A stretch of 64,000 bases of DNA. Source: an uncultured delta proteobacterium. Its GTDB lineage: Bacteria; Desulfobacterota; WTBG01; CAIYCZ01. The first letter of the stretch is position 1, and every line of letters starts with the position of its first letter. The notes under the pieces are model-generated. The model was given only the letters and a program-made list of their open reading frames with translations, made no database searches and was not told the origin of the DNA. Position numbers and translations under genes: made by a program. Shown in pieces: positions 26,605 to 44,333 of the stretch. The stretch is taken from the NCBI GenBank assembly GCA_963803975.1, contig CAWDOY010000016.1:53399-117398 (forward strand), written 5' to 3'.

Positions 26605-28455
26605 TCATATTAAACACTTTCCCTTCATTGTATGTGGCTGACCAAGGCCGGCAGCCTTCAGAACCGTGGGAGCAATATCGAGGCTTTGCGGGTTAGTTTT
26701 TTTTATCCTGTAATTGGAAAACAATATACCGGATACTAACGAAGGGTCGACAATGTGGTCACCGCTCCATTTTTTCAGGTTGGGCTCTAAAAGACTCCGG
26801 GGAGCTCCCCCGATTGCTGTCTGCCAGCTCATACGGTAACCCGTATTAAAACCAACGACCAGATCAGGTGCTGCTGCACGATATTCACCGTTGTATAGGG
26901 CATCCGCAGCATACATCTGTTTGATAACGCTGTCCAAAGAGGAGGGATCTTTAAGAGCTTGCAGGCCCTGAGCAATCTTTCTTGCCAGCGTTGCCGCCTC
27001 GCTGCCGGGCTGTACAATGCCGCGACCCTCTCTTCCCTTGAGGTTTAGATAGATGCTTGAGAACCCCAGAGAATATGCTGCGGTTTTACTCCAGTCAACA
27101 TGTCTGAACAAAGCTCCGCCCTCTTTATCTTCAGGGTCAGGTTTCTCACGAAGCACCATGTAGCTGTTTTCGATAAGCCAGCGATTCAGATTGACCCCCT
27201 GGCGAAAGGTAGTAAAACCATGGTCTGACAGGATAAGCAGCAGTGTTTTATCATCAACATGACCGCGCATGATTTCGCCGATGATGCGGTCCGCCCGCTT
27301 GTAATAATCGCGAATAATGCCACCGTACTTTTGCGCGCCTTTTTTTTCGTACAGCGGATGTCCCGTATCTTCAAACCGCCAGAAGATGTGCTGTATCCGG
27401 TCCGTGGTATCTATGACAAAGGCGCATACACCTTCCCGGAATTTGCTGAGCGTGTAGTGCAGCATTTTCTCGCGCTCATCCATGATCTGCGCACACATAT
27501 CAATAAAGGCATCATCGCTGATCACTCCTTCCGTGAGGGGCTTGGTATCCTCGGGAATGCCCTGGGTATAATAAGGCCCGCCGACAGCATCAGCAAGCTC
27601 CCGGGAAAATCCTTCAGGAGCTGATATGCTGAAACGCGGGTTAACGGGATTAATCTGGAGCGGGGAGAGATAGATGGTTATATGGGGGTCAATGCTGACA
27701 AGATAAAACCTGGCGGCCGCGGAGATTCTGCGTGAACCTTTGACGGGAAACTCCAGCTCTATCCAGCCTGACCATTCTCCCGGCCGCAGGGAGAAGGTCT
27801 GGTGTGCAACCATAATGCTGATAGCGGTTTTATCGCTGGTGATAATTTTTATAGGAATGGCTGCTTCCCTTCCCTGTTCATTATACGGGCCGCTGATCTC
27901 TGCCTCAGCTGTCGCGCCGTTAAAAAGCAGGCGGACGACCTTATCTGCTCCCTCAACTGTTTTATCCGGGAGCCTGGTTGAGAAGCAGGTGTATCGTCCC
28001 AGCTCTCCTCTTATATCAGGCACGCCAAGGCCGGACAGTACGGTGCTGCTGCCTGCAGCCGGAGGAAAGGTCATGGGCCAGCGCAGGGCATATGACGGGA
28101 TGCCTGCTGCTGCCGTGTATTCCCAGAAAAACTTTGCCTGGCAGGGCGGTTCAAAAACCGTTTCCCTGCTGCCTGAACAATTTTTGCGGCCGGGTTGCAG
28201 AATTGACAGCTCCGGCAGATAATTTTTCTGATTGCGCTGAATGAAATCAAAGATGCCGTGGGTGCCTGAGTCGGTTCCCGTTCCGATATCACACCAGGCC
28301 ACCGGGCTCTGGGGCGGGTTTGAGGTAGAGAGCCGGGCATATGACCCCTGCTGTCTGAGCGCAGCGAGGTTGGGAAGGTCTCCCTCCTGCATATAGTGCT
28401 CAGCAAGCCGGGGATCCATTCCATCAATCCCGAGAACGATTATTCTTTTATACAT
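26605..28455 (-). CDS. Alkaline phosphatase superfamily (type I phosphodiesterase/NPP-like) protein
   Basis: VLGIDGMD, PPQSPVAW...TG, DRIQH, ILSDHGF, SGDH, DIAPTVL. Confidence 0.88.
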   Translation of the reverse strand: MYKRIIVLGIDGMDPRLAEHYMQEGDLPNLAALRQQGSYARLSTSNPPQSPVAWCDIGTGTDSGTHGIFDFIQRNQKNYLPELSILQPGRKNCSGSRETVFEPPCQAKFFWEYTAAAGIPSYALRWPMTFPPAAGSSTVLSGLGVPDIRGELGRYTCFSTRLPDKTVEGADKVVRLLFNGATAEAEISGPYNEQGREAAIPIKIITSDKTAISIMVAHQTFSLRPGEWSGWIELEFPVKGSRRISAAARFYLVSIDPHITIYLSPLQINPVNPRFSISAPEGFSRELADAVGGPYYTQGIPEDTKPLTEGVISDDAFIDMCAQIMDEREKMLHYTLSKFREGVCAFVIDTTDRIQHIFWRFEDTGHPLYEKKGAQKYGGIIRDYYKRADRIIGEIMRGHVDDKTLLLILSDHGFTTFRQGVNLNRWLIENSYMVLREKPDPEDKEGGALFRHVDWSKTAAYSLGFSSIYLNLKGREGRGIVQPGSEAATLARKIAQGLQALKDPSSLDSVIKQMYAADALYNGEYRAAAPDLVVGFNTGYRMSWQTAIGGAPRSLLEPNLKKWSGDHIVDPSLVSGILFSNYRIKKTNPQSLDIAPTVLKAAGLGQPHTMKGKCLI

Positions 28456-28503
28456 TATGAAATAACGGGTTCAATTGACTGCAGTTTTGCTGCCAATGAG
28501 TTA

Positions 28504-29458
28504 TTATTTATCGGCAGCAGTGCCTGCCGGTTTAGACCTGGTTTTGTCTGTCTGAGGGAACATGAGTGAAGCGATGATGGAAACAATCAGTGTCAGGGCA
28601 ACTACCCCCAGGGCGACTGTCACCGGAATTTCGTAGACATTGCTGAGAAGCATTTTGACCCCGACAAAAGCAAGGATCACTGAAAGGCCGAGGTTGAGGT
28701 AGTGGAACAGCTCCATGACCCCTGCCAGGGCAAAATAGAGCGCGCGCAGCCCCAGGATGGCGAATACGTTTGATGTGTAGACAATGAATGGGTCGGTAGT
28801 GATTGCAAGTATGGCAGGGATGGAATCCAGGGCAAAGACCACATCGGTTGTTTCAATGACCAGCAGCACCACAAACAGCGGGGTTGCCAGAGCTTTTTTG
28901 TTTTTTCTGATAAAAAATTTACCCTCTACGTAGTTTTCCGTGATTGGCATCAATTTTCGGAACAGTAACGAGCACCGGGTTCTTCTCCGGATGGATCTCC
29001 TTTTCCTTTTCGAAAGCCATCTTGACCGCGATGATGATCAGAAAGACGCCAAACACATATATTATCCAGTGAAACATGTTGATAAGGGCGACACCGGTAG
29101 CAATAAAAATGGCGCGCATGATCAATGCGCCGAGGATACCCCAGAAAAGGACTTTATACTGATACTGGGAAGCGACGCGAAAATAGGAAAACACCATCAG
29201 GAAGACAAAAAGATTATCCACGCTGAGGGAGCGCTCAATCAGGTACCCGGTCAGAAACTGCAGAGCGGTATCCGTTCCGCGCCAGAAATAAATTACCACA
29301 TTAAAGAGCAGCGCCACTACAATCCAGATAGCACTCCACCACAGAGCTTCCTTAATCTTAATGGTGCGCGCCCCCCGGTGAAATACGCCGAGGTCCACGG
29401 CGAGCAGTATCAGCACTAAGATATTGAAACCAACCCACAAAAGTATCTGGTGTGACAT
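28504..29458 (-). CDS. TerC/Alx family membrane protein, frameshift near 28965
   Basis: GYLIERSLSVDNLFVF and ETTDVVFALDSIPA..SNVFAILGLRALYF lie in two frames. Confidence 0.9.
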
Positions 29459-29657
29459 GGAAGTTCTCCGGGTCCTTTAAAAAATAAGCCAGGGTCTTTA
29501 TAGATAGTTATTTATACTAAATCAGGGGGCAATTAGGAAGGAAAAAGCGGCTGGCGAAAACAGCGGCAGGTTGTGTTTGAACAATAGGTTGGAGGTTATT
29601 GCGTGTTGCTTCAAAACATTTTTAGCAGCGCACGTCAGAGAGTTCCTCGGCAGCAGC

Positions 29658-31454
29658 CTATAATGGTGCCACAAGAGATGCTATGTGTTTTACAAACTTC
29701 TGATTGTTGACTTTCGCCCAGACCCCGGGAAACAGTTCCAGCAGGAGCTGCAATTCAGTCTGTCGCGCGGCAAGGTATGCGACAACACCGGGGGCAATAA
29801 CCGGCTTGTATTCGTTTACCCTTTTAGCTGCGCCGCCATGCCCCCACGTCCCACGGTTAAGGTAATCCCGCAACAAGTTGCCCGTGACGACAGCGTCCTG
29901 CAGGTCGCCCAGGTGATCCTGCAGCGTCTTGATTTCTTCAATCAACTGTTCGGTATCCCGACCTAACACCTCGCGAAAGAACTCAAGCGCATAGCGCAGG
30001 CCCTTAAAGGCGATGCGCAGCCGGTGCAGCTGTTCCAGGGGCGGATCAGGTCCCTGCAGCAATTCTTCGAAAGCGCGCACTGCTGCGAGTTGCTGATACA
30101 GCACCACCGGTAATACATGGCGAATGCGCTGCGGCAGCGGTTCGCCCCGGCGCGAAAATGGAGGCAGCGCAGCAGCGCCGGGTTTTTTAAGAAAAGCAGC
30201 AAAGCGTTTTTTGAAGCGAACATAGCGGTCACTGTCCAGAAAGGCGAGCAGCTGTTCGCGGTCTTTTTGATGCTTCCCCTCCAGCACAGCAAGCAGTGGC
30301 TGCAGCCCGTTCTGCTGCTGTGGCGGCAGAGTATCGATGTAACGGTCTGTTTTTTGTCTGAACACATCCAGATCGCGGACCGCGCCAAGAGTGCGGCCGA
30401 CGCGCCGGAGCTCTTTGGCAAAGCGCTGTATCTCATGTTTATCCAGGTGCTTCCCGAACACCCGTATAGCCGCTCGCATGCGCCTGGTCGCGACCCGCAT
30501 GTCATGCAGTTCTTCAGGGTCCTGCCCCAGGCGCGTTCCCGGCTCATGGAAGACCATTCTTTTAAAGTGGAAATAGAGTGTCTTGCGGGCGCCTTCAGCC
30601 ATGGTATCATTAATTTTCAGCCCCGGCTTTTTGGGAGGCTTGCGCGGGTGCGGCTGGACAGCTGCCGCTGCCGGTTGCCTGCGCGTTTCCGCGGGCAATG
30701 CTGCAGCTGGTACCGGCGGATTTTCCTCTGCCGATACCGGGGCGCTATTTTGATCTTTGAGGGCGGACAATGTTACGTCATCAGCATTCACCGGGGGGGA
30801 CTGGGTGGCCGGTGTGTTTATCGCCGGGGCTATTGTTTCACCACTCTGAATGAGGGTACATGCACGCTCAAATTTTGATCGTGATTCTGGGGTCAGAGCC
30901 CACTCTTGCTCAAGGCAGTCCTGAATCATTGCCAGGTCAGGTTCCGTACCTTCCGGCAACAGCTCGACTTCAAGCTCAAAGTACACCTGCTCTCTTTCGT
31001 TTACCTGTAACCGGACTTCATCGAGGCTTAACTCGGCCACAGTCCGTTCACTTGGACTGCTCATACATCGGACCACACGTACTTGCCGCAAATCAAACAG
31101 CATGACCATCGGCTCATGATTGGTGAATTGAAGAAGGAGGTCACGTGCCTGACCATCAGGCCACTGCGCCGGCGGTTCATCACGCGCAAGAGAAACCTCA
31201 AATTCTTCACGCTTATGGACCGCTCCATCGGCACCCGCCAGCTGTTTTAGTGTTATTAAAATGGTGCCGTTAGACTCTCTTTTGCGGCAGGAATAACCGG
31301 CCTTCTTGATAGCGAGGTCCGCGGTGTCCCAATAACTGTCGTGGACCATTTTGGTCTGGGGGGAGGAAAGCATAAAGCCGGCGAGCTGGTCGATCACCTG
31401 TAAACGCCGAAAGGCTTCTTCATCTGGAATTGCAAATTTAGCTTCGATTTCCAT
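29658..31454 (-). CDS. CYTH-CHAD fusion protein (polyP-associated)
   Basis: EIEAKF, D.YWDT, ELEVEL, SKFER (CYTH); HDMRVATRRMR, RDLDV, HRLRI..K.LRY..E, QDHLGDLQD (CHAD). Confidence 0.92.
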   Translation of the reverse strand: MEIEAKFAIPDEEAFRRLQVIDQLAGFMLSSPQTKMVHDSYWDTADLAIKKAGYSCRKRESNGTILITLKQLAGADGAVHKREEFEVSLARDEPPAQWPDGQARDLLLQFTNHEPMVMLFDLRQVRVVRCMSSPSERTVAELSLDEVRLQVNEREQVYFELEVELLPEGTEPDLAMIQDCLEQEWALTPESRSKFERACTLIQSGETIAPAINTPATQSPPVNADDVTLSALKDQNSAPVSAEENPPVPAAALPAETRRQPAAAAVQPHPRKPPKKPGLKINDTMAEGARKTLYFHFKRMVFHEPGTRLGQDPEELHDMRVATRRMRAAIRVFGKHLDKHEIQRFAKELRRVGRTLGAVRDLDVFRQKTDRYIDTLPPQQQNGLQPLLAVLEGKHQKDREQLLAFLDSDRYVRFKKRFAAFLKKPGAAALPPFSRRGEPLPQRIRHVLPVVLYQQLAAVRAFEELLQGPDPPLEQLHRLRIAFKGLRYALEFFREVLGRDTEQLIEEIKTLQDHLGDLQDAVVTGNLLRDYLNRGTWGHGGAAKRVNEYKPVIAPGVVAYLAARQTELQLLLELFPGVWAKVNNQKFVKHIASLVAPL

Positions 31455-31495
31455 GGTTATGCGACAAACACGTTAGGCGGAATGAGCAACACTAA

Positions 31496-31647
31496 CAGGC
31501 TGTTGAAAAACACCCATCTGCTTCGTTGCGCTCATCCTTCGTCATTGCGACGTACGGTACAGTACTCTTCATTCTTCATGATTTCCCACGCCTTGCATCT
31601 GGATGTTTTTGACCAGCCTGGGAGAAAACTACTTTTTCAACAACCTG
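31496..31647 (+). mobile_element. MITE-like element, copy 2
   Basis: TIRs CAGGCTGTTGAAAAA / TTTTTCAACAACCTG; flanks CTAA and TTAG. Confidence 0.8.
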
Positions 31648-32242
31648 TTAGAATAGCCGGCAGGGAAAAAGCCTTTTTAAAATAAGCCGTCTTTTTAGCA
31701 AGCACCTGTTCCGGGATGCTCTTAAGAAAACCACCGGTAACACATATCTTCACGCCGGCTTCACTGATGATAACCTTTTCGATATGTATCTGCTGATTGT
31801 GAAGCCGGTCCAGGCCGTCGACAATCCGGATGATGGCAGCAAGTTTAGAAACAACGTCACGGGTCTGCGCAGAAAGGACCTGAAACTCCGGCTGGTCATC
31901 CGGCTCTGCTTTCCGATGAAACCGTGCTACCAATGCAACAATACGTTGATCTTCTTTACTGAGGGGCAGTTGCGCTTTCTCAATCATGCTGAAGGCCCGC
32001 TTATGATGTTTTGTCTGTCCCTCACTCCAGCCGATATCATGCAGAATACAGCCATATTCCAACAACACCCGATACTGTTGGGCCATGGTATGCAAGCCCG
32101 CATTTTTCAGCTCATCAAAAAGCTTTACGGCTACATGGGCCACATGCAGCGCATGGGCCGGATCAGGATCAAAGCGCCGGCAATACGCCAGTATCTCGTC
32201 GCGGATTGTTTTTGTGCTGATGATGGCTGCGTGTCCGCTCAT
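31637..32242 (-). CDS. Standalone HD-domain protein resembling the Ppx C-terminal domain
   Basis: HALHV, LHDIG, HHK, ARFHRK, IRIVDGLDR parallel the Ppx C-terminus in this window. Confidence 0.85.
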   Translation of the reverse strand: MSGHAAIISTKTIRDEILAYCRRFDPDPAHALHVAHVAVKLFDELKNAGLHTMAQQYRVLLEYGCILHDIGWSEGQTKHHKRAFSMIEKAQLPLSKEDQRIVALVARFHRKAEPDDQPEFQVLSAQTRDVVSKLAAIIRIVDGLDRLHNQQIHIEKVIISEAGVKICVTGGFLKSIPEQVLAKKTAYFKKAFSLPAILTGC

Positions 32243-32246
32243 GCTT

Positions 32247-32663
32247 TTATTTCACCGTCTGGCTCTGCGCAGCAATCTTTTTTGCCCGCGCCGGAGCCGG
32301 CGCAGCCTGGCGCTTGCTGTGCTTCCCTGTGCCCCGCGTTTTCTTCTCCTGGGTATCCAGCATGTTTGCCTTCAGGTCCGCAATGAGCTGGTCGATTGCC
32401 TTGAGATCTTTCAGCCGCCCCTTTTGTGGCTTCAGTTTAAGGCTGCGGACCTGCCGCAGCCATTCCGGAACCTTATCGCGGATTTTTTTTCGGGGGAGGG
32501 TCACAAGGCAGGCGAGAAAGGTCTCGATATTTCCCTCCCTGCGCAGGATGAAATTCTCGGCCACGTCACGTGCCAGAATGCGCAGGAGTTTTAATTCGCG
32601 CGACAAATCATCGTGAAGATCTTCCCCGCCGCCGGTCTTCTGCATGTCACTTTGTTTCACCAT
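32247..32663 (-). CDS. Hypothetical basic protein
   Basis: 138 aa, tightly packed in the operon, LKLKPQKGRLKDLK. Confidence 0.7.
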   Translation of the reverse strand: MVKQSDMQKTGGGEDLHDDLSRELKLLRILARDVAENFILRREGNIETFLACLVTLPRKKIRDKVPEWLRQVRSLKLKPQKGRLKDLKAIDQLIADLKANMLDTQEKKTRGTGKHSKRQAAPAPARAKKIAAQSQTVK

Positions 32664-33344
32664 TTAAACCTCCAATGACTCCTCTACTTTCGCGCAAATA
32701 TCCCGCGCCACCGCCCGGATTGAACGATTGCCGTTGACCAGGTGAAAACCATATTCAACCTGCATCAGGCTGAACTCTCTCTGGATAAGCCTCTGATAAT
32801 TGACAAAGCTGTTCAAAATATCGCGGGATATCCCCATATCTCTCCCTGATTCCCAGTATTCAAGGGTGGCGTTCTTGCGCAGGTTCCGCTCCACGAGCTG
32901 CCCAGGGCTGACCTTCAGGTAAATAACCAGATGGGGCACGAGGGCAATGCTGTAGAGGGAGCGAACCCACTCCCGGGCCGCGCCGCGAACGATTTCCCGC
33001 GCCATGAGCGTGTAGATGTAGCGGTCGGCAAGCACGATGAATCCGGCTCGCAACGCCGGTATGATGATATTTTCCAGCTGATCGGCAAAGTCGGTGGCAT
33101 AAAACAGGCTTCGCGTGACCTCGCTCAGGACATTCCCCTGCTTGGCCTCGTTGAGCTCTTTGGAAACCAGGGTTGAGCGGACCAGCCCCACGTTGCTAAC
33201 GGCATGTCCGCTATTCTCCAGGTAATCCCTGAGCAGATCAATCTGGGTGGAGCGGCCGGAGCCATCAGCTCCTTCAATAACTATCAGCCTGCCGGAAAGC
33301 TCTGTGCAATCAACGTCGGGAATGCCTTCCCCGTAAAATTTCAT
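32664..33344 (-). CDS. Thymidylate kinase-like protein B (Walker A K-to-R)
   Basis: IVIEGADGSGRST, ADRYIYT. Confidence 0.85.
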   Translation of the reverse strand: MKFYGEGIPDVDCTELSGRLIVIEGADGSGRSTQIDLLRDYLENSGHAVSNVGLVRSTLVSKELNEAKQGNVLSEVTRSLFYATDFADQLENIIIPALRAGFIVLADRYIYTLMAREIVRGAAREWVRSLYSIALVPHLVIYLKVSPGQLVERNLRKNATLEYWESGRDMGISRDILNSFVNYQRLIQREFSLMQVEYGFHLVNGNRSIRAVARDICAKVEESLEV

Positions 33345-33371
33345 ATGCCTCCTTGAATGCGGGCCGCATGC

Positions 33372-34070
33372 TCATATCTGTGTTTTCCAGCGGTACCGCG
33401 GCAGATCGAACCTGTCGGTGACCATCTCACGGACCCGCGCCTGCTGCTCTTCGATAGGTAACGTGCCGTCCATGGTGACAAACTCAAACTCCTCTGCCAC
33501 GGCAAGGTACTCCTGGTATATCTTTCCCTGAAACAGGCGAAAACTTTCGTAGGGGTCCGCAGACAGGCCCAGGTCCATCCCCGCTTCGAAATATTTAAGC
33601 TGGGGCCTGCCGGAAAGAATCCGGTTAAGGGAAACCTCAAGCGGGGTGTTGAAAAAAAAGGTAAGGTCGGGACGGCGGGCAAAGCCATAGAGGTTGCGCA
33701 GCCATTGCCGGGAGCAGCCCCGGACCGCATCCCGCGCAAAGGCGGTATAGATGTAGCGGTCGCAGAGGACCAGATAACCAGCTTTCAGAAGGGGAAGCAG
33801 CTGGCGCTCGTAGCGGTCGGCAAAATCAGTGCAGTGAATGAGACTGAACGTTGTGGGTGTAAGGAGCTGCCTTTTTTTGCCCTTGCTGGTTGCCTTCTTG
33901 ACAATGACCGAGGAGTTCCACTCGCTGAAGAAAACTTTGAGCCCCCGCATCTCAAGCCAGCGTTTCAGCAGGTACACCTGGGTCGACTTGCCGGAACCGT
34001 CAAGCCCTTCAACCGCAATCAATTTACCAAGGGGCTCTTCGCTGACGCTCTTTTTTTTCCTATCAAGCAT
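33372..34070 (-). CDS. Thymidylate kinase-like protein A
   Basis: IAVEGLDGSGKST, CDRYIYT, PDLTFFF. Confidence 0.88.
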   Translation of the reverse strand: MLDRKKKSVSEEPLGKLIAVEGLDGSGKSTQVYLLKRWLEMRGLKVFFSEWNSSVIVKKATSKGKKRQLLTPTTFSLIHCTDFADRYERQLLPLLKAGYLVLCDRYIYTAFARDAVRGCSRQWLRNLYGFARRPDLTFFFNTPLEVSLNRILSGRPQLKYFEAGMDLGLSADPYESFRLFQGKIYQEYLAVAEEFEFVTMDGTLPIEEQQARVREMVTDRFDLPRYRWKTQI

Positions 34071-34590
34071 AGATCCTCTTGAGCGATTTGCGGGCCTTTT
34101 TCAGACTGCTGCTCATTGCATCGGCTCCCGTATCTGCAGTAAGCCCGGAAAGGCGCTGCCCGGCCTTTGCCAGCCCCTTGCCGGCCCGCTTTACGCGCTT
34201 CTCCATCTTGGCCTCAGCTTTCTCTAAGGCGGTAACCGTCTTAAGAAGTTCTGCTGCAACCTTCTTTCCGCTTTTGCCCTGCAGGTCTTCGCCGACCCGC
34301 TTCTTGCAAGCCCTGCCGAGTCCATCCACCTGCTCCCTGATCGCTGCTGCCGCGGACTTGAGCCCTGCAATCTGCCGGGCGCGCTCAGCGCTTTTTTCCG
34401 CTGTCATCGCGGCCGCCTGCCTGATAATGGACGGGATGGTCTGCGGGTTTATTCCCTGGATGCTTTTCAAGCCCGCTTCTTCTGCCGCGGCAATCCGGTC
34501 AAAGCTATCATAACCAGCCTTGATAAAACGCTTTGCCAGTATTTCCCCGACACCCTTAATCTGCTGCAGTTCTTTCATGATCTTCTTCAT
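34063..34590 (-). CDS. Helix-hairpin-helix domain protein with Lys/Ala-rich C-terminus
   Basis: IKGVG...AKR and IQGINP HhH motifs. Confidence 0.75.
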   Translation of the reverse strand: MKKIMKELQQIKGVGEILAKRFIKAGYDSFDRIAAAEEAGLKSIQGINPQTIPSIIRQAAAMTAEKSAERARQIAGLKSAAAAIREQVDGLGRACKKRVGEDLQGKSGKKVAAELLKTVTALEKAEAKMEKRVKRAGKGLAKAGQRLSGLTADTGADAMSSSLKKARKSLKRIYA

Positions 34591-34843
34591 GGTTGCCCCT
34601 TCAAATGATTTTAATAAACAGCATAAGCACTATATATCTCTCGCCTCACCCCAGATACGGTGAGCTAAACCCGTCAGCAAAACCTGACACCGATTATATA
34701 CGGCGAGTTTCTGGCAATCTTTCCAGAAGGCGCGCTCCTGGGAATCGCTTCGCTTATCTATCCTGTATCTACCAATTAATGCACGGGGCAAATTTGCTGC
34801 CGGCCTTCACCGCATGCGCCCTGCTGTATCCGCCGTTATACCG

Positions 34844-36469
34844 CTAATTAATCTCAACCTGGTAGCCGTAAACTTCATTAAAAAGATCCCTTTTTGGCAT
34901 CAGCGCCCATCGATAGAAGGAGCGCTCTTTAGCAGGCGGAAGGTTGAGTATTATGCGATTGCCCCGTGTTTTTATTGAGAGGGGCATTTTTTGTGCGGCA
35001 TGGTCCCTGTCGAGTGCATCCGCCACCCGTACTATTGCAGCAAGCTTAAGGATGATTTTTTTCTCTTTAGAGTCCATATTCTGGAAATTTTCATGCTGTC
35101 CCTTGGGAAAGGATTTCCGGTGGTAGCGGGCGATGTTGGCTGCAATCAGCTTATCCCGCGCTGAGAGGCCGACAATATCTGATTCAGAAATAAGGTAATA
35201 GGAATGTTTGTGGTGGCGGGAAATGCTGACAAAATAGCCGATATCGTGGAGCAACGAAGCGATTTCCAGCAGCAAACGCTCTTTCTCGCCCAGGCGGTGA
35301 ATATCCTGCATTGCGTCGAAGAGCTCCAGCGCGTAAGCAGTAACCGTGGTTGCATGGTTTCGGTCAAATTCGTATTTTTCCCCGACCGCCATGACGGCGC
35401 TGATTAACTGCTGGTATTTTTTAAGCTTATGTACCGGCTCTTCTTTTCTGAAAAGCTCAATGGCGAGTCCGTCTCTCACCCCAACGCCCGGGGTATAAAT
35501 CCACTCTGCCTGAGCCATCCGGGCAAAGCTTAAATAAACCTGGGCTGCAGGCAGTATCACATCCGCCCGGTCCGGTCGCAGGCGGAATTTTTCCACCCTC
35601 TCGTTAAAGCTGTACAGCGCCAGCTCGCGTATGACCCTGGCCAGGGTCTCGCAGGAGATGCGCTGGAAGCCGGTGCTGTTATCAACAATACCCCAGTCGG
35701 TCTGCTCAAGCAGCCACACCACGCTGTCAATATTACCTCCGGTCGCAATAAAGCGGTCGATTTTTTTCGTGCCCAGGCTGTGGCGGAGGCGATTGTGGGT
35801 GAGGTTGATATATTCCTGAATGATGCCGTTGAATTTTTCCTGGCTGTCATGGCAGTGGTTTTGAAGCTGAATCAAGCGGACTGCGCCGAGCTTGTGGGTA
35901 AGCGAAAACTGAACCTTGCCGTCCTCAATCAGGCTCACCTCAACGCTGCCGCCCCCCACCTCAATGTGTTCGACATTCAGTCCGGCCAGCTCCATGCGGT
36001 CAAGGATAGCAGTGATTATCAGGCGCGCTTCCTCGCTGCTGTCTATAATCTGAACATCAATGCCGGTTTCCTGGACCGCGCGCTCAATGAAAGCAGCTCC
36101 GTTTGATGCCTCCCGGACGGCACTGGTAGCAACTGCAGCGACTTTAGAAACTGCGGCGCGGTCGATGAGCTGACGGAATTCCTTCATGGCTTTGAGTGCG
36201 TCTTCGAAGCTCTGGCTGAGGATTTTACCGTTATGGAAAACATCATGGCCCAGGCGGATCGGCTTGCGCAATGTTTCAATCGTCTGTATCGCGCCCTGTG
36301 CATCCTGCTCGAAAATATGCATGCGCAGAGCATTTGAACCAATATCTATTGCAGCGACTCTGCTGTGCAGGTTGTTTTCCACGGCGCACCTGTTTTCTGA
36401 ATACGCGGCGTGCGGGGATCGTGCGTTCTCACCGGCGTCCGCGCGCAGGATGGTATTCGTAAGCATCAA
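34844..36469 (-). CDS. ppx: Ppx/GppA exopolyphosphatase with HD domain
   Basis: AAIDIGSN, ATSAVREASN, EEARL, GGGSVE, R.DRADVI, LHDIG. Confidence 0.94.
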   Translation of the reverse strand: MMLTNTILRADAGENARSPHAAYSENRCAVENNLHSRVAAIDIGSNALRMHIFEQDAQGAIQTIETLRKPIRLGHDVFHNGKILSQSFEDALKAMKEFRQLIDRAAVSKVAAVATSAVREASNGAAFIERAVQETGIDVQIIDSSEEARLIITAILDRMELAGLNVEHIEVGGGSVEVSLIEDGKVQFSLTHKLGAVRLIQLQNHCHDSQEKFNGIIQEYINLTHNRLRHSLGTKKIDRFIATGGNIDSVVWLLEQTDWGIVDNSTGFQRISCETLARVIRELALYSFNERVEKFRLRPDRADVILPAAQVYLSFARMAQAEWIYTPGVGVRDGLAIELFRKEEPVHKLKKYQQLISAVMAVGEKYEFDRNHATTVTAYALELFDAMQDIHRLGEKERLLLEIASLLHDIGYFVSISRHHKHSYYLISESDIVGLSARDKLIAANIARYHRKSFPKGQHENFQNMDSKEKKIILKLAAIVRVADALDRDHAAQKMPLSIKTRGNRIILNLPPAKERSFYRWALMPKRDLFNEVYGYQVEIN

Positions 36470-37131
36470 TTCAGTCCCTCAAGGTTGTGATGCTTTATTA
36501 TTTTCCCCTCAACCATAAATATCACTTCCTCGCAAAGGTTGGTGGATAAATCAGCGATCCGTTCAAGGTTTCTGGCAATACGCATCAGGTCAAGACATCG
36601 CGGAATATTAGCGGGGTCAGCCCGCATCAGCTCGATGAGTTCCTGAAATGTTTTATCGCGCAGGCTGTCTATTATGTCGTCCCGCTCGCACACTAAATTA
36701 GCCAGGGCCTGATCTTCATTAATAAATGCCGTGATACTATCTGTCACCATCTGTGCCGCCACTGAAGCCATTTCCGGTATATCAATCAAGGGCTTAACAG
36801 CCGGAGTCTCCAGCAGGCGAAGGCTGCTTTGAGAGATGTTTACCGTATGATCTGCCATCCGCTCCAGGTCTTCGTTCATCTTGAAAACCATGAGAATGGT
36901 CCTCAAGTCCTTGGCCATGGGCTGGTACTGGGCAATGAGCGACGTGCACAGTTCATCAAGCCGTATGTCCAGGTCATTGGCTTTTGGCTCGTCTATTTGT
37001 ATGACCGAGTCAAGCAGCTCCCGGTCCCGTTTTACCAGTCCATTGATACTGCTGCTAATCATGTGCTCTACCAGCGTGGCAAGCTCTACGAGGACCTTTC
37101 TTAATTCACTAAGCCTTTCATCCAGTACCAT
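36466..37131 (-). CDS. phoU: Phosphate signalling protein PhoU
   Basis: QPMAKDLR, DLERMADH, NLERIAD. Confidence 0.95.
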   Translation of the reverse strand: MVLDERLSELRKVLVELATLVEHMISSSINGLVKRDRELLDSVIQIDEPKANDLDIRLDELCTSLIAQYQPMAKDLRTILMVFKMNEDLERMADHTVNISQSSLRLLETPAVKPLIDIPEMASVAAQMVTDSITAFINEDQALANLVCERDDIIDSLRDKTFQELIELMRADPANIPRCLDLMRIARNLERIADLSTNLCEEVIFMVEGKIIKHHNLEGLN

Positions 37132-37281
37132 GATGGTTTCCTCTATAACGATGTATTTATTCTATATTTAGATAGCACAAAAATAGTCACAAAGCATGCA
37201 AGGTATTGCGCAGTGTGCTCTGTGGTTTGCATCTTAGCCCTACGATTCATAAATTCGATGTCGAATTTACTCACTCAGGAC

Positions 37282-38041
37282 TTAGCCAAACTTCCCGCTC
37301 AGATATTCCTCGGTGCGCTTGTCTTCAGGTACGGTGAACAGCTTTTGCGTGGGTCCGAATTCAATCAGATCGCCCAGATAGATGAATGCCGTAAAATCCG
37401 AGGTGCGGGCTGCCTGAGCGATATTGTGAGTAACCAGGATGATCGTCACCGTCTCTTTGAGCTCAATCATTAATTCTTCTATATGTGCTGTTGATTTCGG
37501 GTCAAGGGCCGAAGTCGGCTCATCGAGCAGCATGATTTCCGGCTTCATGGCAAGGGCCCGGGCAATGCAGAGCCGCTGCTGCTGGCCGCCGGAGAGAAAG
37601 GTCCCCTTTCTTGTACAGGCTGTCCTTCACTTCGTTCCACAGGGCGGCTTTGCGCAGCGATTCCTCAACAATGCGGTCAAGCTCGGCCGCAGCTATTTTA
37701 ATTCCGTTCAGCTTGTAGCCGGCAACGACATTATCATAAATATTCATGGTAGGGAAGGGATTGGGCCGCTGAAAGACCATGCCGATTTTGCGCCGGGCAA
37801 GAATCGGATTCAACGCATAAATATCTTCATTTTGCAGCAGCATCCTGCCGGATACGGTGGCATTGGGTATGAGTTCATGCATGCGGTTAATGCACCGGAC
37901 CAGGGTTGTTTTGCCGCATCCCGAAGGGCCCATCATGGCGGTCAGTTTATTCCGGGTAATTTCCAGCGAGATGTTTTTCAGGATTTGATTGTCCCCGAAA
38001 TAGGCACAGAAATTTTCAGTTTTTAAAACTGGACTTTCCAT
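37282..38041 (-). CDS. pstB: Phosphate ABC transporter ATPase, frameshift at about 37603
   Basis: [20 protein letters not shown], then LSGGQQQ / [11 protein letters not shown] in another frame; extra G in GGGG. Confidence 0.93.
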
Positions 38042-38871
38042 TTTTTTATCATCACCTTTGCAAACGCGTTAAGCAGCAGCACAAAGACCCCCAGCACCAG
38101 GGAGGCACCCCATGCGATGGCGTGCCATTCAGGATACGGGCTTGCCGCGTAATTGAAGACCAGCAGGGGCAGAGAATTTACCGGCTTAAGCAGATTGAGA
38201 TTCATAAAAGGATTGCCGAACGCGGTAAATAATAATGGCGCGGTCTCACCCGCAACCCGCGCAATGCTCAGGATAACGCCGGACACCACGCCGCTCAGCC
38301 CTGCCGGCAGCACAACTTTAAGAATTGTTTTGTAATAGGGCACCCCCAGTGACAGGGATGCTTCTTTCAGGGAGTCAGGAATAAGCTTCAACGTTTCTTC
38401 GGCTGACCGGACAATGACCGGCAGCATCATTATGGCCAGAGCAATACCGCCGGAAACCGCGGAAAAGGTCCTGAGCGGCATCACGATCCATACATAGGCG
38501 ATAATGCCGATGACAATGGACGGGATGCCCTGCAGTATCTCAACGCAGAGCCTCACCAGGTAGGAAAGCCTGCCCTCCTTATGTTCAGAAAGATAAATTC
38601 CCGCGCATATCCCCAGGGGGATAGCTAGCACGCAGGAAACGCCCAGCAGCATACCGGTTCCCACAATGGCGTTGGAGATGCCGCCCCCGGTCTCCCCGAC
38701 GGGCTTGGGGAGGTTAGTGAGAAACTGCCAGTTAATGACGGCGATGCCGTTTTTAAAAATATAAAACAGTATAAACAGAAGCGGCAGCGCCGAGCTGAAC
38801 GAAAAAAGGATCACGGCTGCTTTAAACAGACGGTCTTTATAGAGCCTGAAACGAAACCGGTCCTGCTGCAT
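38023..38871 (-). CDS. pstA: Phosphate ABC transporter permease PstA
   Basis: GIPSIVIG, EASLSLG, ARVAGETAPLLFT. Confidence 0.95.
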   Translation of the reverse strand: MQQDRFRFRLYKDRLFKAAVILFSFSSALPLLFILFYIFKNGIAVINWQFLTNLPKPVGETGGGISNAIVGTGMLLGVSCVLAIPLGICAGIYLSEHKEGRLSYLVRLCVEILQGIPSIVIGIIAYVWIVMPLRTFSAVSGGIALAIMMLPVIVRSAEETLKLIPDSLKEASLSLGVPYYKTILKVVLPAGLSGVVSGVILSIARVAGETAPLLFTAFGNPFMNLNLLKPVNSLPLLVFNYAASPYPEWHAIAWGASLVLGVFVLLLNAFAKVMIKKWKVQF

Positions 38872-38872
38872 A

Positions 38873-39850
38873 TTAAACCTGCACGCTCATCTTTTTTATG
38901 ATCTGTTTACCGATAATATTTATGACCAGGGTGACCATGAAAAGCAACAGCCCGATCTCGACTAAAGAAGATAAGTATAGAGTGCTCGTTGCCTCGGTAA
39001 ATTCATTGGCAATAACGCTTGCCATGGTATTGGCCGGCGCAAAGATGCTGCCGGGGGATGAAATTTGAGTTGCCGATGACCATGGTAACCGCCATGGTCT
39101 CGCCGATTGCCCTGCCCAGGGCGAGGATGTTACCGGCGGTTATTCCTGAAACCACGTAGGGGAGAATAACTCTGCGTATGACCTCAAACCGCGTGGCACC
39201 AAGCGAATAGGCTGCTTCCTTAAGCTCGGTGGGAACAAGCCGTATCACCTCTCTGCCCAGCGATGCGGAATAGGGGATAATCATGATGGCGAGGATGAGG
39301 GACGACGTCAACATACCAACCCCATAGGGTGTAACGCCAAGCTTTATTTCAATATACCGTACTATAGGCACCATGATGAAGAGCCCCCAGAACCCGTAAA
39401 TGACCGACGGTATCCCTGCCAGCAGCTCGACCGCGCTGCGCAGCATTGAGGAAAGAAAGTCCTCCGCAGCATATTCCCCCAGATAGATAGAGAGTGACAG
39501 GGAAAAGGGCAGGGATATTAGCCAGGGCCATGAAAGAAGTAATAAGCGGTTCCGACCAGGAACGGCAACGCGCCGAACTCTTCGGTCACGGGGTTCCATG
39601 TTTTCGATAATAAAAATTTTAAGCCGAATGCTTTAATAGCGGGGAACGATTCTATGACAAGCGTAAGCAAAATGCCGGCGAGGAGCAGGACCATGCATAG
39701 TGCTGAACCATAGAGTATTGCGCGGAAAATAGATTCAGGCGTGTTAAACGGATCAAACTGCCACTGTTTCGTTTTTTCCTTGTGTTTTGCAGCATCGAGA
39801 AAATCAGCCACTGATATTGCCCCTGTATTGCTTTCAGTCTCCATGCACAC
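38873..39850 (-). CDS. pstC: Phosphate ABC transporter permease PstC, two frameshifts
   Basis: WNP..EEFGALPFLVGT, ELLAGIPSVIYG, GRAIGETMAV in separate frames. Confidence 0.9.
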
Positions 39851-39865
39851 CTTCTTCTATACCAT

Positions 39866-39904
39866 AAAAAAGCAGGGAGGGTAGAAACACTATCTACCCT
39901 CCCT
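39866..39904 (-). terminator. Hairpin between pstS and pstC
   Basis: AGGGAGGGTAGA / TCTACCCTCCCT stem + U-tract on the minus strand. Confidence 0.7.
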
Positions 39905-39916
39905 CTTCGATTACCG

Positions 39917-40973
39917 TTACTGTTTCAGCAGGGGCGCACCATTGTAAACAACCGATCGTAAAATCTTTTCCCCCTTGGTTATCGCGCTATTCGGGATAGG
40001 GGCGTACTTCATCGGTTCAGCAATCTGCTGTCCTTCATGGAGCATCCACCACAACAGCTTTACCAGTTCTTCCGCCCGTTCTTTGCTTCGATCAGAAGAA
40101 TAATTCTGCTCTTTATAGAGTATCAGCCAGGTAAAGCCGCTTATGGGATAGCCGTCTGCCGCATCGGTATCAGTGAGCGAAACCCGGGTATCATCCGGCA
40201 TATCAATATTGGCGGCGGCGCTGGTCGACTTGATGTTCGGCTCAATGAAATTTCCCGCCTTATTCTTAATGATGCCCGCCGGCATATTGTTCTGCATGGT
40301 ATAGATTAATTCCACGTAGCCGATCGCACCGGGAGTCTGATTGATGAGGCCGGCCACGCCGGGATTGCCTTTTGCGCCGAGCCCTACTGGCCAGTTGAGG
40401 GATTTATCAGTGCCCACTTTAAATGCCCAGTCCTTGCTCACCTTGCTCAGGTAGTCGCTGAAGATGAACGTGGTGCCGCTGCCGTCTGAGCGGTGCACAA
40501 CGACGATACTCATGCCGGGAAGCTTGACCGTCAGGGTTTATTGCCGCAATCCGGGGATCATCCCAGCGGGTAATTTTCCCGAGAAAAATATCCGCTATCA
40601 CGTCCGGGGTGAATCGTAACTGCGGCTTTTCCGGCAGATTATAGGTAACCACCACAGCGCCGAGGCAGGTCGGGATATGCAGGATAGGGACTTCGGCCTT
40701 TTTCATTTCCCGTTCATTCAAGAAGGCATCGGTGCCGCCAAAATCAACGGTCTTGCTGATAAGCTGCTGGATCCCGCCGCCGGAGCCAATGGCCTGGTAG
40801 TTTATTTTTACTTTATGTGCCTGGTAATAGGTATCAAACATCTTTGAATACAGCGGATAGGGAAACGTTGCTCCCGCTCCCAGCAGCTCCTTGGACTCTG
40901 CGCGGACAGGGCAGGGGGAATAGACCAGCATCATCAGCAGTGCTAACACTGCGCAGCATAATAGTTTTTTCAT
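39917..40973 (-). CDS. pstS: Phosphate-binding protein PstS, frameshift at about 40529
   Basis: GAGATFPYP, GSGGGI, HRSDGSGTT, GAIGYVE, YPISGFTW. Confidence 0.94.
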
Positions 40974-41010
40974 TTCGTGTCTCCTTTGTCTGTTGGTTGA
41001 CATTCGCTCT

Positions 41011-42274
41011 TTAAAACTTGAAGTTTAAATCTGTCTGCAGCAGGTGTTCCGGACGCGCCGGGCCGTGGATCTGCTCTGAGTAGAAATAGTTGAGCGTAAA
41101 GTTCACATTCTTTTTCAGGCCGTAAACAAAGCTCCCGTGCGGTCCCCTGGCGTCGGTTGCGCCCTCATAAAAGTCAGAATCAGGCAGAATATCAAGCACT
41201 GAGTCGCGCTCCAGGCGGCGGTAGTCAACGCTGAACTGCCACTGTTTGGGGTCCTTTACCTTTTCATCCCCGAAGTTAAACCCCACCAGAAATGCCTGGT
41301 TGTTATCTGACGGGTCAGGGTTGTTCACATACTCGCCGAACAGGCTTGCGTAACGCACCAGACCGAATGGCTCCTTGAAGCCCAGCTGGAATGTTGATGT
41401 AAAGGCGTCAAAATCATATTTGTACACGTCTTTCCCGGTCGTTTTGTTTTTCACCCGGGTATTTGATCCTGAAGAATATTTCAGCTCGGCACCCTCTACA
41501 TTATCAATTCCGTAATAGCCGAAAGCCCATTTCAGGCTGGTCCCGTAGTTGATTTTCCAGTCAAATCCCGGCTGAATAATCCACATGAACGGGTCTGAGG
41601 TATCCTGGGCATTTTCCTCAAGCACCATCACCCCGACGTTTGTGAACAGACCGAAATTCCTGTTCAAATTATAGGTAAATTCTCCGGCGCCGCCTTCAGG
41701 CGTGATGTCGGAATCCCAGATCAGCTGCGACACGGTGAACAGCGGATTGCGGAACTTGCCGCCGATCAGCTTGATCCCGATATCCTTATTATTAAAGCAC
41801 CGTTTGGGCGTATATTCAATATTGGCATAGTCAACATTGATGTCCTTCTTTTCATTGCTGCCGCCGAAAGTCTGGTTGGTTGACCGGGGGTCACCGGTGC
41901 CGGTGGCCAGGCCGAACATGAATTTCAGGTCATCAGCCACCTGGGTTTCTATGCCGAGCCGGACCCTGAAGCGTCCCCGGTGACGCTCATCCTGCTCGTC
42001 CCGGTCGGTCCACTGGTAGCGCAGGCGGAAGTCGCCCGTCAATTTTGTCTTCTGCACCCACTCGGGCAAAACCGGCGAAAACTTGCCTTCCTTGGTCTGC
42101 TTGGTAACTTCTTCCTTGGTCTCGCGCAGTATTTTATCTCCTTCAGCCGGCGACAGTATTCCCTTTTCAACCAGCTTTTCCACGAGAACATCAACCTCAC
42201 CCGCGCGCGCCGCGGCTGCTGTGCCGAGCACCAGCGCTGTAACTATGTATAAAATGATTAGATATTTTTTTCAT
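41011..42274 (-). CDS. Putative porin (likely phosphate uptake); A7 run frameshifts the signal peptide
   Basis: LVEKGIL N-terminus, GDFRLRY, C-terminal FKF; directly upstream of pstS. Confidence 0.8.
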
Positions 42275-42345
42275 ATCACAATACTCCTTGTTTAAGGGTT
42301 TCGCATACAGAGAACTACGAGCAGCCTCCTTGGATTCATTATTGT

Positions 42346-42879
42346 TTAGGCAGGTTTAGGCGGTGTATATTTTGTCAGCTCTACCAGCATGGTGAATGGC
42401 GCAGGGAATACAAAATCACCCGGATTCTCTACCCCCGTCACCAGCACCCCTACCGTGACAAACCCAAAGCTTGAGTTGATATCAACTTTCCGCACAATCT
42501 TCAGCGGCGAGGCTTTGCTGTCAACGATTGCCTTAGGGGCCTGCGGGGTTGTGGTATTAAGCGCATAGGAGGCGCCGATCATCAGAAAGTCCAATTTAAA
42601 CAGAAAATCAGAGGATTTTGCAGTTGGCGTAAGGGTCAGGGTGAGAGTCCCAGCAGGTGCTTCCTCTCCTGTACCCAGTGCAATAATCGTGAACAGATAC
42701 AGAGGACCAAATTTCTGCGCATCAAAAATGTCGCCCACAAAGAACGGAAACTGTTCAGAATACCCGGGCGTGGCAAAGACTAACTCCTGGGCCTGGGCTG
42801 CAGATGGTGCAGTCATGGACGCCGATAGCGTGATAAGGACTGCCAGCGTTAACCAGATAATGTTTTTTCTGTGTTTCAT
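42346..42879 (-). CDS. Hypothetical secreted protein heading the porin-pst operon
   Basis: Signal peptide ending AQA, SD AGGAGG. Confidence 0.7.
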   Translation of the reverse strand: MKHRKNIIWLTLAVLITLSASMTAPSAAQAQELVFATPGYSEQFPFFVGDIFDAQKFGPLYLFTIIALGTGEEAPAGTLTLTLTPTAKSSDFLFKLDFLMIGASYALNTTTPQAPKAIVDSKASPLKIVRKVDINSSFGFVTVGVLVTGVENPGDFVFPAPFTMLVELTKYTPPKPA

Positions 42880-43096
42880 ACTATCATTCCTCCTAATATG
42901 ATGAATTTAAAATAGGTCTGATGATAAAAAGTACTCTTTAAAAGAATCGTTAAGCTGGCTGTGCACGAGGTTGGATTGTTTTCATGTCATTTCTTTCCCT
43001 CCTTTTTAGTTGAAGTGTTGTATTGTTTATACGGTTCAACTACTTACCTGCTACTGATGTAGCGCCTGCATATTGTTAGATTGAATATTTCAGGTG

Positions 43097-43135
43097 CATT
43101 AAGAAGGTATAAAGATTGTGTTAATATTGTGTTAA
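43097..43135 (-). promoter_or_regulatory. Putative Pho box upstream of the porin-pst operon
   Basis: TTAACA-5-TTAACA-5-TTTATA-5-TTAATG, 11-bp period. Confidence 0.75.
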
Positions 43136-43250
43136 TTCTGCTTGTCCATATTGCTGCCAATGCAAACGCATAATTAATTGGTGAACTGGGGCGTTGGCTG
43201 CTGGCTATCTGGCAGGCAACAATCAGGGGCGATCCCCCATTTTTAACAGC

Positions 43251-44333
43251 CTATGCATTCATAAAAACTTCTGCGGGGTAGTAAGCTGTGCGCTTCCCGG
43301 TGCTGAACAGCACCGGCCTGTTGTGCCTGGGGTTGCTGTTTTTTTGCAGATTAAGTTTAAATTCTGAACCGTAAAGACCAAAAACATCCGCGTAATTAAA
43401 CGCCGTGCAGGGCATAAGTGCCAGCGTCTGAACCGGACGATTGCCTTGGAAAGCCTCCCGTATCATGGTGGATGATGCTGCAAACGGCATACCGGGAATG
43501 AACGCTGCCGGGATGTCGGTTTCAACGGTGCAGTCACGGGCTCCCCGTTCAATAAAAATTGCTGAAATGCTGTGCAGGGAGGGGTTAAAATAATATGTTT
43601 CATCGGCAATCTTTTCTTCCAGTTTCTGCAGGGTATCAGCTTCCCCGGTTCTGGGATTAAGGCGATGGTAGTGATCAGCGCCAACAATATAGAAGAGATC
43701 AATGCTCTGGTCCGGGTTTAACGAAGCTATTTTAAACAGGTTCATTTCTCCGTCACAGTCATTCTCCAGGGCAATGGATGAATAGCTGAAAAATGGTGCA
43801 AAAATTTTTATTACTTCCTCCCCTATGAGGTGACGTATCTCCGCAGGGGCCAGCGCTGGCTTGCGGGGATCGCTGCCGGAAATGACATAGATAATGTTAT
43901 CCAGCCTGAAGCGCACCAGGGCGGACAAACCGCTAAGCAGATGTGCCCAGTGGAATGGATTGGCGGCAACAGGGTAGATTCCCACGCGCAGCGTTCTGCT
44001 TACCAGCGGTTTTACAGGATCGTGAGGAGCAGTGCGTATTGCAGCATGAGGGTCAAGTATCTTTCTGTTCAACAGATATTCCGCCTGGTCCAGCAGTTGC
44101 GCGAGGCTGGACAGAATTTCAGTAAACGGGTAACTGGTGAGCGGCAGGTTGAGCATCTGCGACATATCCAGCAACTCCTGATACGCTCTTGTTCTGACTG
44201 CCTCTACTGCAGGATTGCCGCAGCTTCCTGCCTCCGTGTCTATTGCCGGACTGACGGATTGCATAGTAATCTCCTTGGTGTGATTTTTAAATTTCCATGC
44301 AGCGCCCGATCTCTCAAGAGATGAGCGCTGCAT
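43251..44333 (-). CDS. Divergent NadD-like nucleotidyltransferase with N-terminal extension
   Basis: GIYPVAANPFHWAHL, YIVGAD, SSTMIR. Confidence 0.72.
   Translation of the reverse strand: MQRSSLERSGAAWKFKNHTKEITMQSVSPAIDTEAGSCGNPAVEAVRTRAYQELLDMSQMLNLPLTSYPFTEILSSLAQLLDQAEYLLNRKILDPHAAIRTAPHDPVKPLVSRTLRVGIYPVAANPFHWAHLLSGLSALVRFRLDNIIYVISGSDPRKPALAPAEIRHLIGEEVIKIFAPFFSYSSIALENDCDGEMNLFKIASLNPDQSIDLFYIVGADHYHRLNPRTGEADTLQKLEEKIADETYYFNPSLHSISAIFIERGARDCTVETDIPAAFIPGMPFAASSTMIREAFQGNRPVQTLALMPCTAFNYADVFGLYGSEFKLNLQKNSNPRHNRPVLFSTGKRTAYYPAEVFMNA

Follow-up and report, generated by a model that had tools for sequence, protein, structure and literature searches.

A tandem pair of thymidylate kinase-like genes in a bacterial phosphate and polyphosphate gene cluster probably encodes a two-subunit, PPK3-type polyphosphate kinase

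Introduction

The closest described relative of the gene pair reported here is PPK3 of the archaeon Sulfolobus acidocaldarius (SaPPK3), a polyphosphate (polyP) kinase consisting of Saci_2019 (cPPK3; AAY81315.1) and Saci_2020 (rPPK3; AAY81316.1) (J Biol Chem 2026, PMC12995831; preprint bioRxiv 10.1101/2024.08.28.610084). According to the accessible text of that article, Saci_2019 catalyses both the formation of polyP from ATP and the production of ATP out of ADP plus polyP, and Saci_2020 is inactive alone and boosts activity 6- to 10-fold. The enzyme favours ATP formation, polyP being synthesized only at a high ATP/ADP ratio. Neither protein makes dTDP, and a third gene encodes the true thymidylate kinase (Tmk). 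PPK3 is held to derive from Tmk independently of PPK2 and is predicted in 'a few bacteria', and most of its carriers are said to have neither PPK1 nor PPK2. The inactivity of rPPK3 is ascribed to a lost DRX arginine, as stated for Saci_2020 and STK_15420; the term 'Walker A' is absent from the main text as accessible. Data S1 of the same article, which states 47,545 genomes, has no entry for Geobacter, Geotalea, Syntrophus, Syntrophobacter or Desulfomonile as far as row 31,788. In the open-access literature searched, we found no characterised bacterial PPK3.

Three further reference points are relevant. Sulfurisphaera tokodaii STK_15430, deposited as a dTMP kinase and reassigned as a cPPK3 homologue (PMC12995831), has been solved without a partner (PDB 2PLR, 4NZY, 4RZX and 5H70), and its neighbouring gene (L120) has a Walker A arginine together with DGY. 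PPK2 enzymes (PF03976) are likewise P-loop kinases that use polyP and favour nucleotide phosphorylation, and their two-domain members, too, contain a partner domain that is inactive (PMC12995831, accessible text). Canonical Tmk (PF02223, TIGR00041) shares its fold with the gene pair. Here we describe a pair of Tmk-like genes in a 64,000-nucleotide window of a contig from an uncultured delta proteobacterium, and compare it with these systems.

Organization of the locus

Two adjacent genes on the minus strand, designated A (33372..34070; 232 aa) and B (32664..33344; 226 aa), are predicted to encode a PPK3 catalytic-type (cPPK3) and a partner (rPPK3-type) subunit, respectively. Both passed the Pfam Thymidylate_kin model, and their products were 40 % identical across 192 aa. 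The translation of A carries GLDGSGKST (Walker A lysine K28) and DRY at 104-106, along with E50-W51-N52-S53-S54, K65, H79, R86, R113, R117, R150, R155 and K159. That of B carries GADGSGRST (Walker A arginine R31) and DRY at 107-109 and retains R56, R116, R120 and R153, with the equivalents of W51/N52, H79, R86, R155 and K159 of A replaced. At the site of TREPGG in the Tmk of this genome, the alignment placed EWNSS in A and GLVRS in B. The initial annotation had described adjacent Tmk-fold genes with these two P-loops, both keeping DRY and lacking REPG, located between ppx/HhH and HD/CYTH-CHAD genes and downstream of pstSCAB-phoU; each of these observations was confirmed, with both ORFs intact and the gene order supported by Pfam. 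Comparison with a relative (G003) indicated purifying selection on both A (dN/dS 0.092/2.46) and B (0.10/1.70), at dS values near saturation.

On the minus strand the genes follow the order porin, pstS-pstC-pstA-pstB, phoU, ppx, HhH protein, A, B, a 138-aa ORF, HD protein, CYTH-CHAD and terC. The putative porin (41011..42231; Porin_5) lies 7 bp upstream of pstS, and the phosphate ABC transporter genes pstSCAB (37282..41003) were recognized by tblastn with G003 proteins and by the Pfam models PBP_like_2 and BPD_transp_1. These are followed by phoU (36466..37131; PF01895) and ppx (34844..36469; PF02541 and PF21447), a member of the Ppx/GppA exopolyphosphatase family whose start is likelier at 36382, where homology to the G003 protein begins. 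A lysine-rich HHH_5 protein of 175 aa (34063..34590) precedes A, its stop overlapping the A start by 8 bp. Directly after the B stop, with a gap of 0 bp, is an ORF for a basic helical protein of 138 aa (32247..32663), followed by a stand-alone HD protein resembling domain III of Ppx/GppA (31637..32242; PF21447) and a CYTH-CHAD protein (29658..31454; PF01928 and PF05235). All of these features are on the minus strand. The gaps from the HhH gene through A, B and the 138-aa ORF to the HD gene are -8, 27, 0 and 4 bp, a spacing that fits a single transcript.

The 138-aa ORF had no Pfam or NCBIfam match and an Atlas search gave nothing usable; it contains a conserved stretch, [LV][KS]xKPxKGRx[KR]D[LV], and was present in six of the ten phylum loci described below and in one wider locus (L005). 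The HhH gene was found in three of the same ten loci and in one (L048) of the 73 wider PPK3-like loci among the best 80 listed. That either of these two proteins binds polyP is a guess. There was no remnant of sixA between ppx and the HhH gene, which are separated by a 253-bp gap (34591-34843); in G003 a sixA gene occupies this position (L004, 12898-13377).

As assembled, pstS, pstC, pstB and terC are frameshifted. Contigs from other runs are one base shorter at or near these places, a single extra base being present in the window at 28970, 37607, 39050, 39521, 39546 and 40531, so that the frameshifts are probably assembly errors and the genes are likely intact. A promoter scan of the cluster was uninformative (10 sites against 13.8 expected), and terminator-like sites numbered 29 against 16.6 expected, one of them directly after pstS. 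Contigs from RNA libraries span parts of the cluster, though contigs by their nature cannot demonstrate transcription. Between the HD and CYTH-CHAD genes lies a MITE-like element of 160 bp with long terminal inverted repeats (31492-31651), which gave 101 BLAST matches in the genome, 80 of them of at least 130 bp. No Rfam match was found within 28000-43500, this element included. Elsewhere in the genome, a distant SixA-like gene (27 % identity; C9:127541-128017) adjoins a copy of the repeat element, and another Ppx/GppA-like gene, broken across two frames (C3:143396-144350), is adjacent to ORFs that resemble guaB and guaA.

Family placement of A and B

The S. acidocaldarius proteins used for comparison were recovered from genome loci, their identity being confirmed by the primers given in PMC12995831 and by accession. 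A shared 48 % identity with Saci_2019, compared with 23 % for Saci_2020 and 22 % for the Tmk of its own genome. The corresponding values for B were 36, 33 and 25 %, and since B is only 33 % identical to Saci_2020 against 36 % to Saci_2019, its placement rests on the phylogeny. STK_15430 was the top sequence match of both proteins and is 45 % identical to A. The best PDB match of A was 2PLR (E=3e-59), with other Tmks reaching 7e-16 at best, and that of B was 2PLR/5H70 (E 8e-36), with other Tmks at 3e-10 at best. The structure model of B (pLDDT 90) had 5H70 as its top fold match (TM 0.84).

An IQ-TREE phylogeny was built from 87 rows, comprising 74 PPK3-type domains and 13 Tmks, hand-picked from the 216 domains of a FastTree analysis. 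The PPK3-type rows were split from the Tmks at 100/100. Within them, one clade at 100/99 united the 36 B-type rows, to which B and Saci_2020 belong; in it the Sulfolobales-type partners lay on a long branch. The A-type rows formed one clade in FastTree (0.869) but not in IQ-TREE, where the branches were weak and the clade appeared in 16 % of bootstrap trees, with the bootstrap unsettled. Saci_2020 scored 140 bits against a profile of non-Sulfolobales B-type proteins and 105 bits against the A profile. Motifs common to the A-type rows nevertheless speak for a catalytic-type subgroup. Lysine occupies the Walker A position in all 101 of them, and EWN was found in 87 of 90 A-type and 11 of 11 Sulfolobales-type A rows, whilst xEP was present in 13 of 13 Tmks. 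In alignment with Saci_2019 itself, K65, R86, R105, R113, R117, R150, R155 and K159 of A were common to both proteins, and columns with at least 85 % conservation among bacterial A-type proteins are nearly all occupied in Saci_2019 by an identical or similar residue, the listed cleft residues included.

The locus has in common with SaPPK3 the tandem arrangement of c before r next to ppx and CHAD genes, the Tmk fold with the dTMP-site motif replaced, a separate canonical tmk, catalytic-type residues common to A and Saci_2019 and a partner in the Saci_2020 clade; an A2B2 assembly may be a further likeness, as modelled below. It differs in that B has GADGSGRST and DRY where Saci_2020 has GIMSSGKTT and DGY, and in an N-terminal FYGEG extension of B that contacts A in the model. 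The cluster in the window is moreover bacterial and lacks sixA, and it adds the HhH, 138-aa and stand-alone HD proteins, a CYTH-fused CHAD and the upstream pst-phoU block. From canonical Tmk, with which A and B have the fold, P-loop, DRX and lid arginine in common, both differ in lacking xEP and the dTMP-binding residues and in belonging to another clade and neighbourhood. Membership of PPK2 was rejected, PF03976 matching neither A nor B nor anything else in the genome. The TIGR00041 model failed as a discriminator between Tmk and PPK3, because Saci_2019 passes its cut-off of 83 bits, which A (80) and B (75) miss.

The partner subunit

The arginine at the Walker A position of B, pointed out in the initial annotation, is not peculiar to this locus. 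GxDxSGR[ST] was found in 120 of the 120 best-scoring B homologues. Over 32905-33776, a contig assembled from a different run departed from the window at only two letters, whereas a lysine codon would need three changes. The substitution is thus real, and sequencing error or a private mutation is excluded as its source. Partner groups were taken from the FastTree analysis, leaving out duplicates, domains shorter than 165 aa and six divergent rows. In the 85 non-Sulfolobales partners so defined, Walker A arginine occurred in 84, DR in all 85 (81 DRY, 4 DRF), R116 and the lid residue R153 in all 85, R120 in 82 and the B-specific R56 in 83. Judged by these sequences, K-to-R is the usual partner form in the PPK3 family, spread over many bacterial phyla and Nitrososphaeria- and Thermoplasmata-type archaea.

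The 11 Sulfolobales-type partners looked different, with DGY in every case and Walker A arginine in seven and lysine in four, Saci_2020 being among the latter. As DRX arginine loss was seen in 11 of 11 of these and in none of the 85 others, we read it as a trait of the Sulfolobales-type subgroup and not of the family, and B as a variant of rPPK3. The published rPPK3 trait of a lost DRX arginine does not apply to B, which keeps D107-R108-Y109, and the explanation of inactivity offered in the accessible text of PMC12995831 consequently does not carry over to it. The DGY form, nested in the B clade on its long branch, looks derived from the sequences at hand, which would make the sole characterised partner subunit atypical of its family.

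Replacement of the Walker A lysine by arginine generally cripples phosphotransfer, and our search for literature on this change found nothing specific to the Tmk-type fold. In one fused homologue (P0241) the B domain has no P-loop motif at all (GSDYSGHYQ), which fits a non-catalytic partner role. Together with the missing equivalents of W51/N52, H79, R86, R155 and K159, this favours B being a non-catalytic activator.

ESMFold2 modelling of an A2B2 complex gave a score of 0.62 against 0.00 for the best of three controls, a result that may reflect likeness to solved Tmk-type dimers; the threshold applied was attained by 116 of 157 solved complexes, as opposed to 2 of 215 mismatched pairs, figures that are only rough for this purpose. 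Runs agreed in at least 82 % of contacts, with a partner pLDDT of at least 84. The modelled interface is formed mainly by helices A71-90 and B73-92, tightest between A73-85 and B76-88, with B5-10, 155-161 and 175-178 also taking part. This is presumably the ordinary Tmk dimer surface, and for that reason the model may pass on the strength of solved homodimers and not of real binding between the pair.

Genome background and distribution

The genome has three PF02223 matches, two of them being A and B and the third, which is stronger, lying on contig C43. The last has TREPGG, scores 167 bits against TIGR00041 and is followed by a DNA polymerase III delta-prime gene, identifying it as the canonical tmk-holB; the separate tmk whose presence the initial annotation had proposed to confirm is therefore there. 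Neither PPK1 (searched as two domains) nor PPK2 was found in the genome using Pfam and tblastn with proteins of relatives. With the genome estimated at 98 % complete, the absence of both is likely, though not proven.

The pair is patchily distributed, occurring in two of 41 relatives and in ten of 301 genomes of the phylum, each of the ten with exactly two adjacent matches. In a scan of GTDB, we considered the best 80 loci among the matches listed, which are not a census; 73 were PPK3-like and seven were Tmks. These 80 come from Acidobacteriota, Verrucomicrobiota, Chloroflexota, Nitrospirota, Planctomycetota and Bacteroidota as well as from several archaeal groups. Of the 73 PPK3-like loci, 67 contained a B-type gene. 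Among the remaining six, one has a CHAD gene next, another lies at the end of its contig, a third carries a partner with the lysine and three are divergent. The lysine-bearing case (L067, Gastranaerophilales) keeps GSGKST in both genes of the pair. In L074, L076 and L077 (Vicinamibacterales/Acidobacteriota), A has diverged and its partner can hardly be recognised; L077 also has a PLD-like gene close by. Outside these loci, a close homologue of B with 75 % identity was found in Geobacter sulfurreducens, which provides a named, cultured host.

Neighbouring ppx, CHAD, sixA or HD genes were seen in 48 of the 73 PPK3-like loci among the best 80 listed and in all ten phylum loci, compared with none of the seven tmk loci; neighbourhood statistics with ppx/CHAD had been proposed as a check in the initial annotation. 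The counts derive from fetched DNA of up to 6 kb per side and home-built profiles, and they include non-independent kin and a small control. For PPK3-like loci of at least 12 kb in the same set the figure was 27 of 40. No such neighbour was seen in 25 of the 73 loci, some of which are short contigs. Gene fusions joined A to B (P0241, P0484), A and B to the HD domain (PF21447) that is stand-alone in the window, as a cPPK3-rPPK3-HD tandem (P0252, P0265, P0272), and Ppx to A (P0488). Eight loci, most of them from Verrucomicrobiota, have a gene for a ROK-family kinase after B and often ahead of ppx (L005, L009, L012, L017, L020, L023, L030 and L047); it might encode a polyP-dependent sugar kinase.

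Among 60 pair-carrying genomes, mostly MAGs and a non-random sample picked by similarity, 20 had PPK1, 42 had PPK2 and 16 had neither. Within the phylum, PPK1 was present in two of ten carriers compared with 31 of 301 genomes. The idea that PPK3 strictly replaces PPK1 and PPK2 is unsupported by these data, as just 16 of the 60 carriers lacked both, contrary to the 'most' given in the accessible text of PMC12995831.

Proposed function and alternative explanations

Taking sequence, motifs, phylogeny and neighbourhood together, we consider A and B to be a PPK3-type two-subunit polyphosphate kinase, with a probability of about 0.85. The initial annotation suggested that the pair forms a polyP-dependent kinase of heteromeric type wrongly annotated as dTMP kinase; this is supported here and agrees with the biochemistry reported for the homologues Saci_2019/Saci_2020 (PMC12995831), whereas the alternative of a polyP sensor found no direct support. 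The relationship to PPK2 that it had drawn holds for the shared P-loop fold only, since PPK3 is reported to have arisen from Tmk independently of PPK2 (PMC12995831, accessible text). The family is one already described, with bacterial members predicted in the same text, which limits how surprising the pair is. Since A and B fall in the family of both PPK3 subunits, they are likely this bacterium's polyphosphate-to-ATP enzyme, and an organism seemingly without a polyP kinase likely has one. More widely, homologues of A and B are annotated as dTMP kinase, and thousands of such entries are probably PPK3 subunits.

By analogy with SaPPK3 (PMC12995831, accessible text), A would bind ADP or ATP at its intact P-loop and hold polyP in the basic cleft found in place of the dTMP pocket, shuttling phosphate reversibly between polyP and ADP with the ATP direction favoured and polyP made only at high ATP/ADP. 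B would join A, probably as A2B2, activating it by oligomerisation and raising its rate. B itself is likely inactive or weak, given the change of Walker A lysine to arginine and the replacement of several A-specific cleft residues. Around the pair, Pst and PhoU would handle phosphate uptake, Ppx would degrade polyP and the CHAD protein would bind it, CHAD domains being polyP-binding according to the accessible text of PMC10892726 and in agreement with the initial annotation. The cluster as a whole may thus form the organism's unit for phosphate uptake and for polyP storage and mobilisation.

The alternative that lies nearest concerns the role of B alone and overlaps with the above: within the same PPK3 complex, B could keep a working ligand site and act as an allosteric nucleotide or polyP sensor, an extension of the polyP channel or a second active site. 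We regard this as a tentative possibility, clearly less probable than a non-catalytic activator. The near-fixed DR, R116, R153, R120, R56 and Walker A arginine of the 85 partners, the lysine position being taken by arginine and not by random residues, exceed any obvious scaffold need, and the tested DGY partner, nested on its long branch in the B clade, looks derived. The general effect of a Walker A K-to-R change on phosphotransfer nevertheless speaks against it, as does the lack in B of the W51/N52, H79, R86, R155 and K159 of A. Saci_2020 still activates having lost DRY (PMC12995831, accessible text), and the fused partner domain of P0241 has dispensed with the P-loop. A more specific and equally speculative version holds that the usual PPK3 partner is no dead scaffold, its Walker A arginine, DRY and extra arginines forming a nucleotide- or polyP-sensing site that sets direction or rate. 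If so, B would regulate the sole polyP kinase found in this genome, with the two small basic accessory proteins as additional components of the complex that have yet to be described.

A different specificity for the pair as a whole, for instance as a polyP-driven NMP/dNMP kinase or a (p)ppGpp-type enzyme, appears unlikely. The identity of A to the tested Saci_2019 is just about 48 %, PPK2 classes are generally known to vary in acceptor at similar distances, and the neighbours include Ppx/GppA, HD, NUDIX and ROK proteins; against this, the conserved columns of bacterial A-type proteins, cleft residues included, are nearly all matched by the same or similar residues in Saci_2019, and Pfam and tblastn searches found no other PPK in the genome. 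Least probable is the reading given in databases, that A and B are extra thymidylate kinases. Both do pass Pfam Thymidylate_kin and their homologues bear that name, but in both proteins other residues stand in place of xEP and of those typical of Tmk at the F/R/H and Y-Q positions, a canonical tmk-holB is present, the phylogeny separates A and B from Tmk at 100/100, and neither Saci_2019 nor Saci_2020 yields dTDP (PMC12995831, accessible text).

Fused and eukaryotic-type homologues

A 794-aa protein (P0350) from an EukProt transcript of the protist Ancoracysta twista combines SPX, cPPK3 and DUF2252 domains, with GLDGSGKST, WNSS and DRY intact. Besides this, we found a second protein with the arrangement SPX-MFS-cPPK3-DUF2252, its cPPK3-like domain likewise intact in these motifs, and a protein named for the rotifer Rotaria sordida with the P-loop and WNSS (P0428, 1297 aa; P0487, 1350 aa). 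The SPX-fused cPPK3 could possibly be a eukaryotic, phosphate-regulated, single-subunit PPK3, though contamination may account for it. In the literature searched, no paper was found that brings together the SPX domain, thymidylate kinase and polyphosphate, and the fused form is likely more novel than the pair in the window. Fusions of about 1200 aa with the order MFS, cPPK3-like and DUF2252/APH were also observed (P0331, P0334, P0339, P0363, P0441, P0453, P0470 and others); the named ones are from Elusimicrobiota, and they show about 45 % identity to P0350 over its C-terminal three quarters. In other homologues the cPPK3-like domain was fused to NUDIX or lay within very large InPase proteins (P0341, P0370, P0371, P0387 and P0388; P0328, P0358 and P0376). 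No partner domain was seen in these NUDIX and InPase proteins, and P0328 additionally carries ART-PolyVal.
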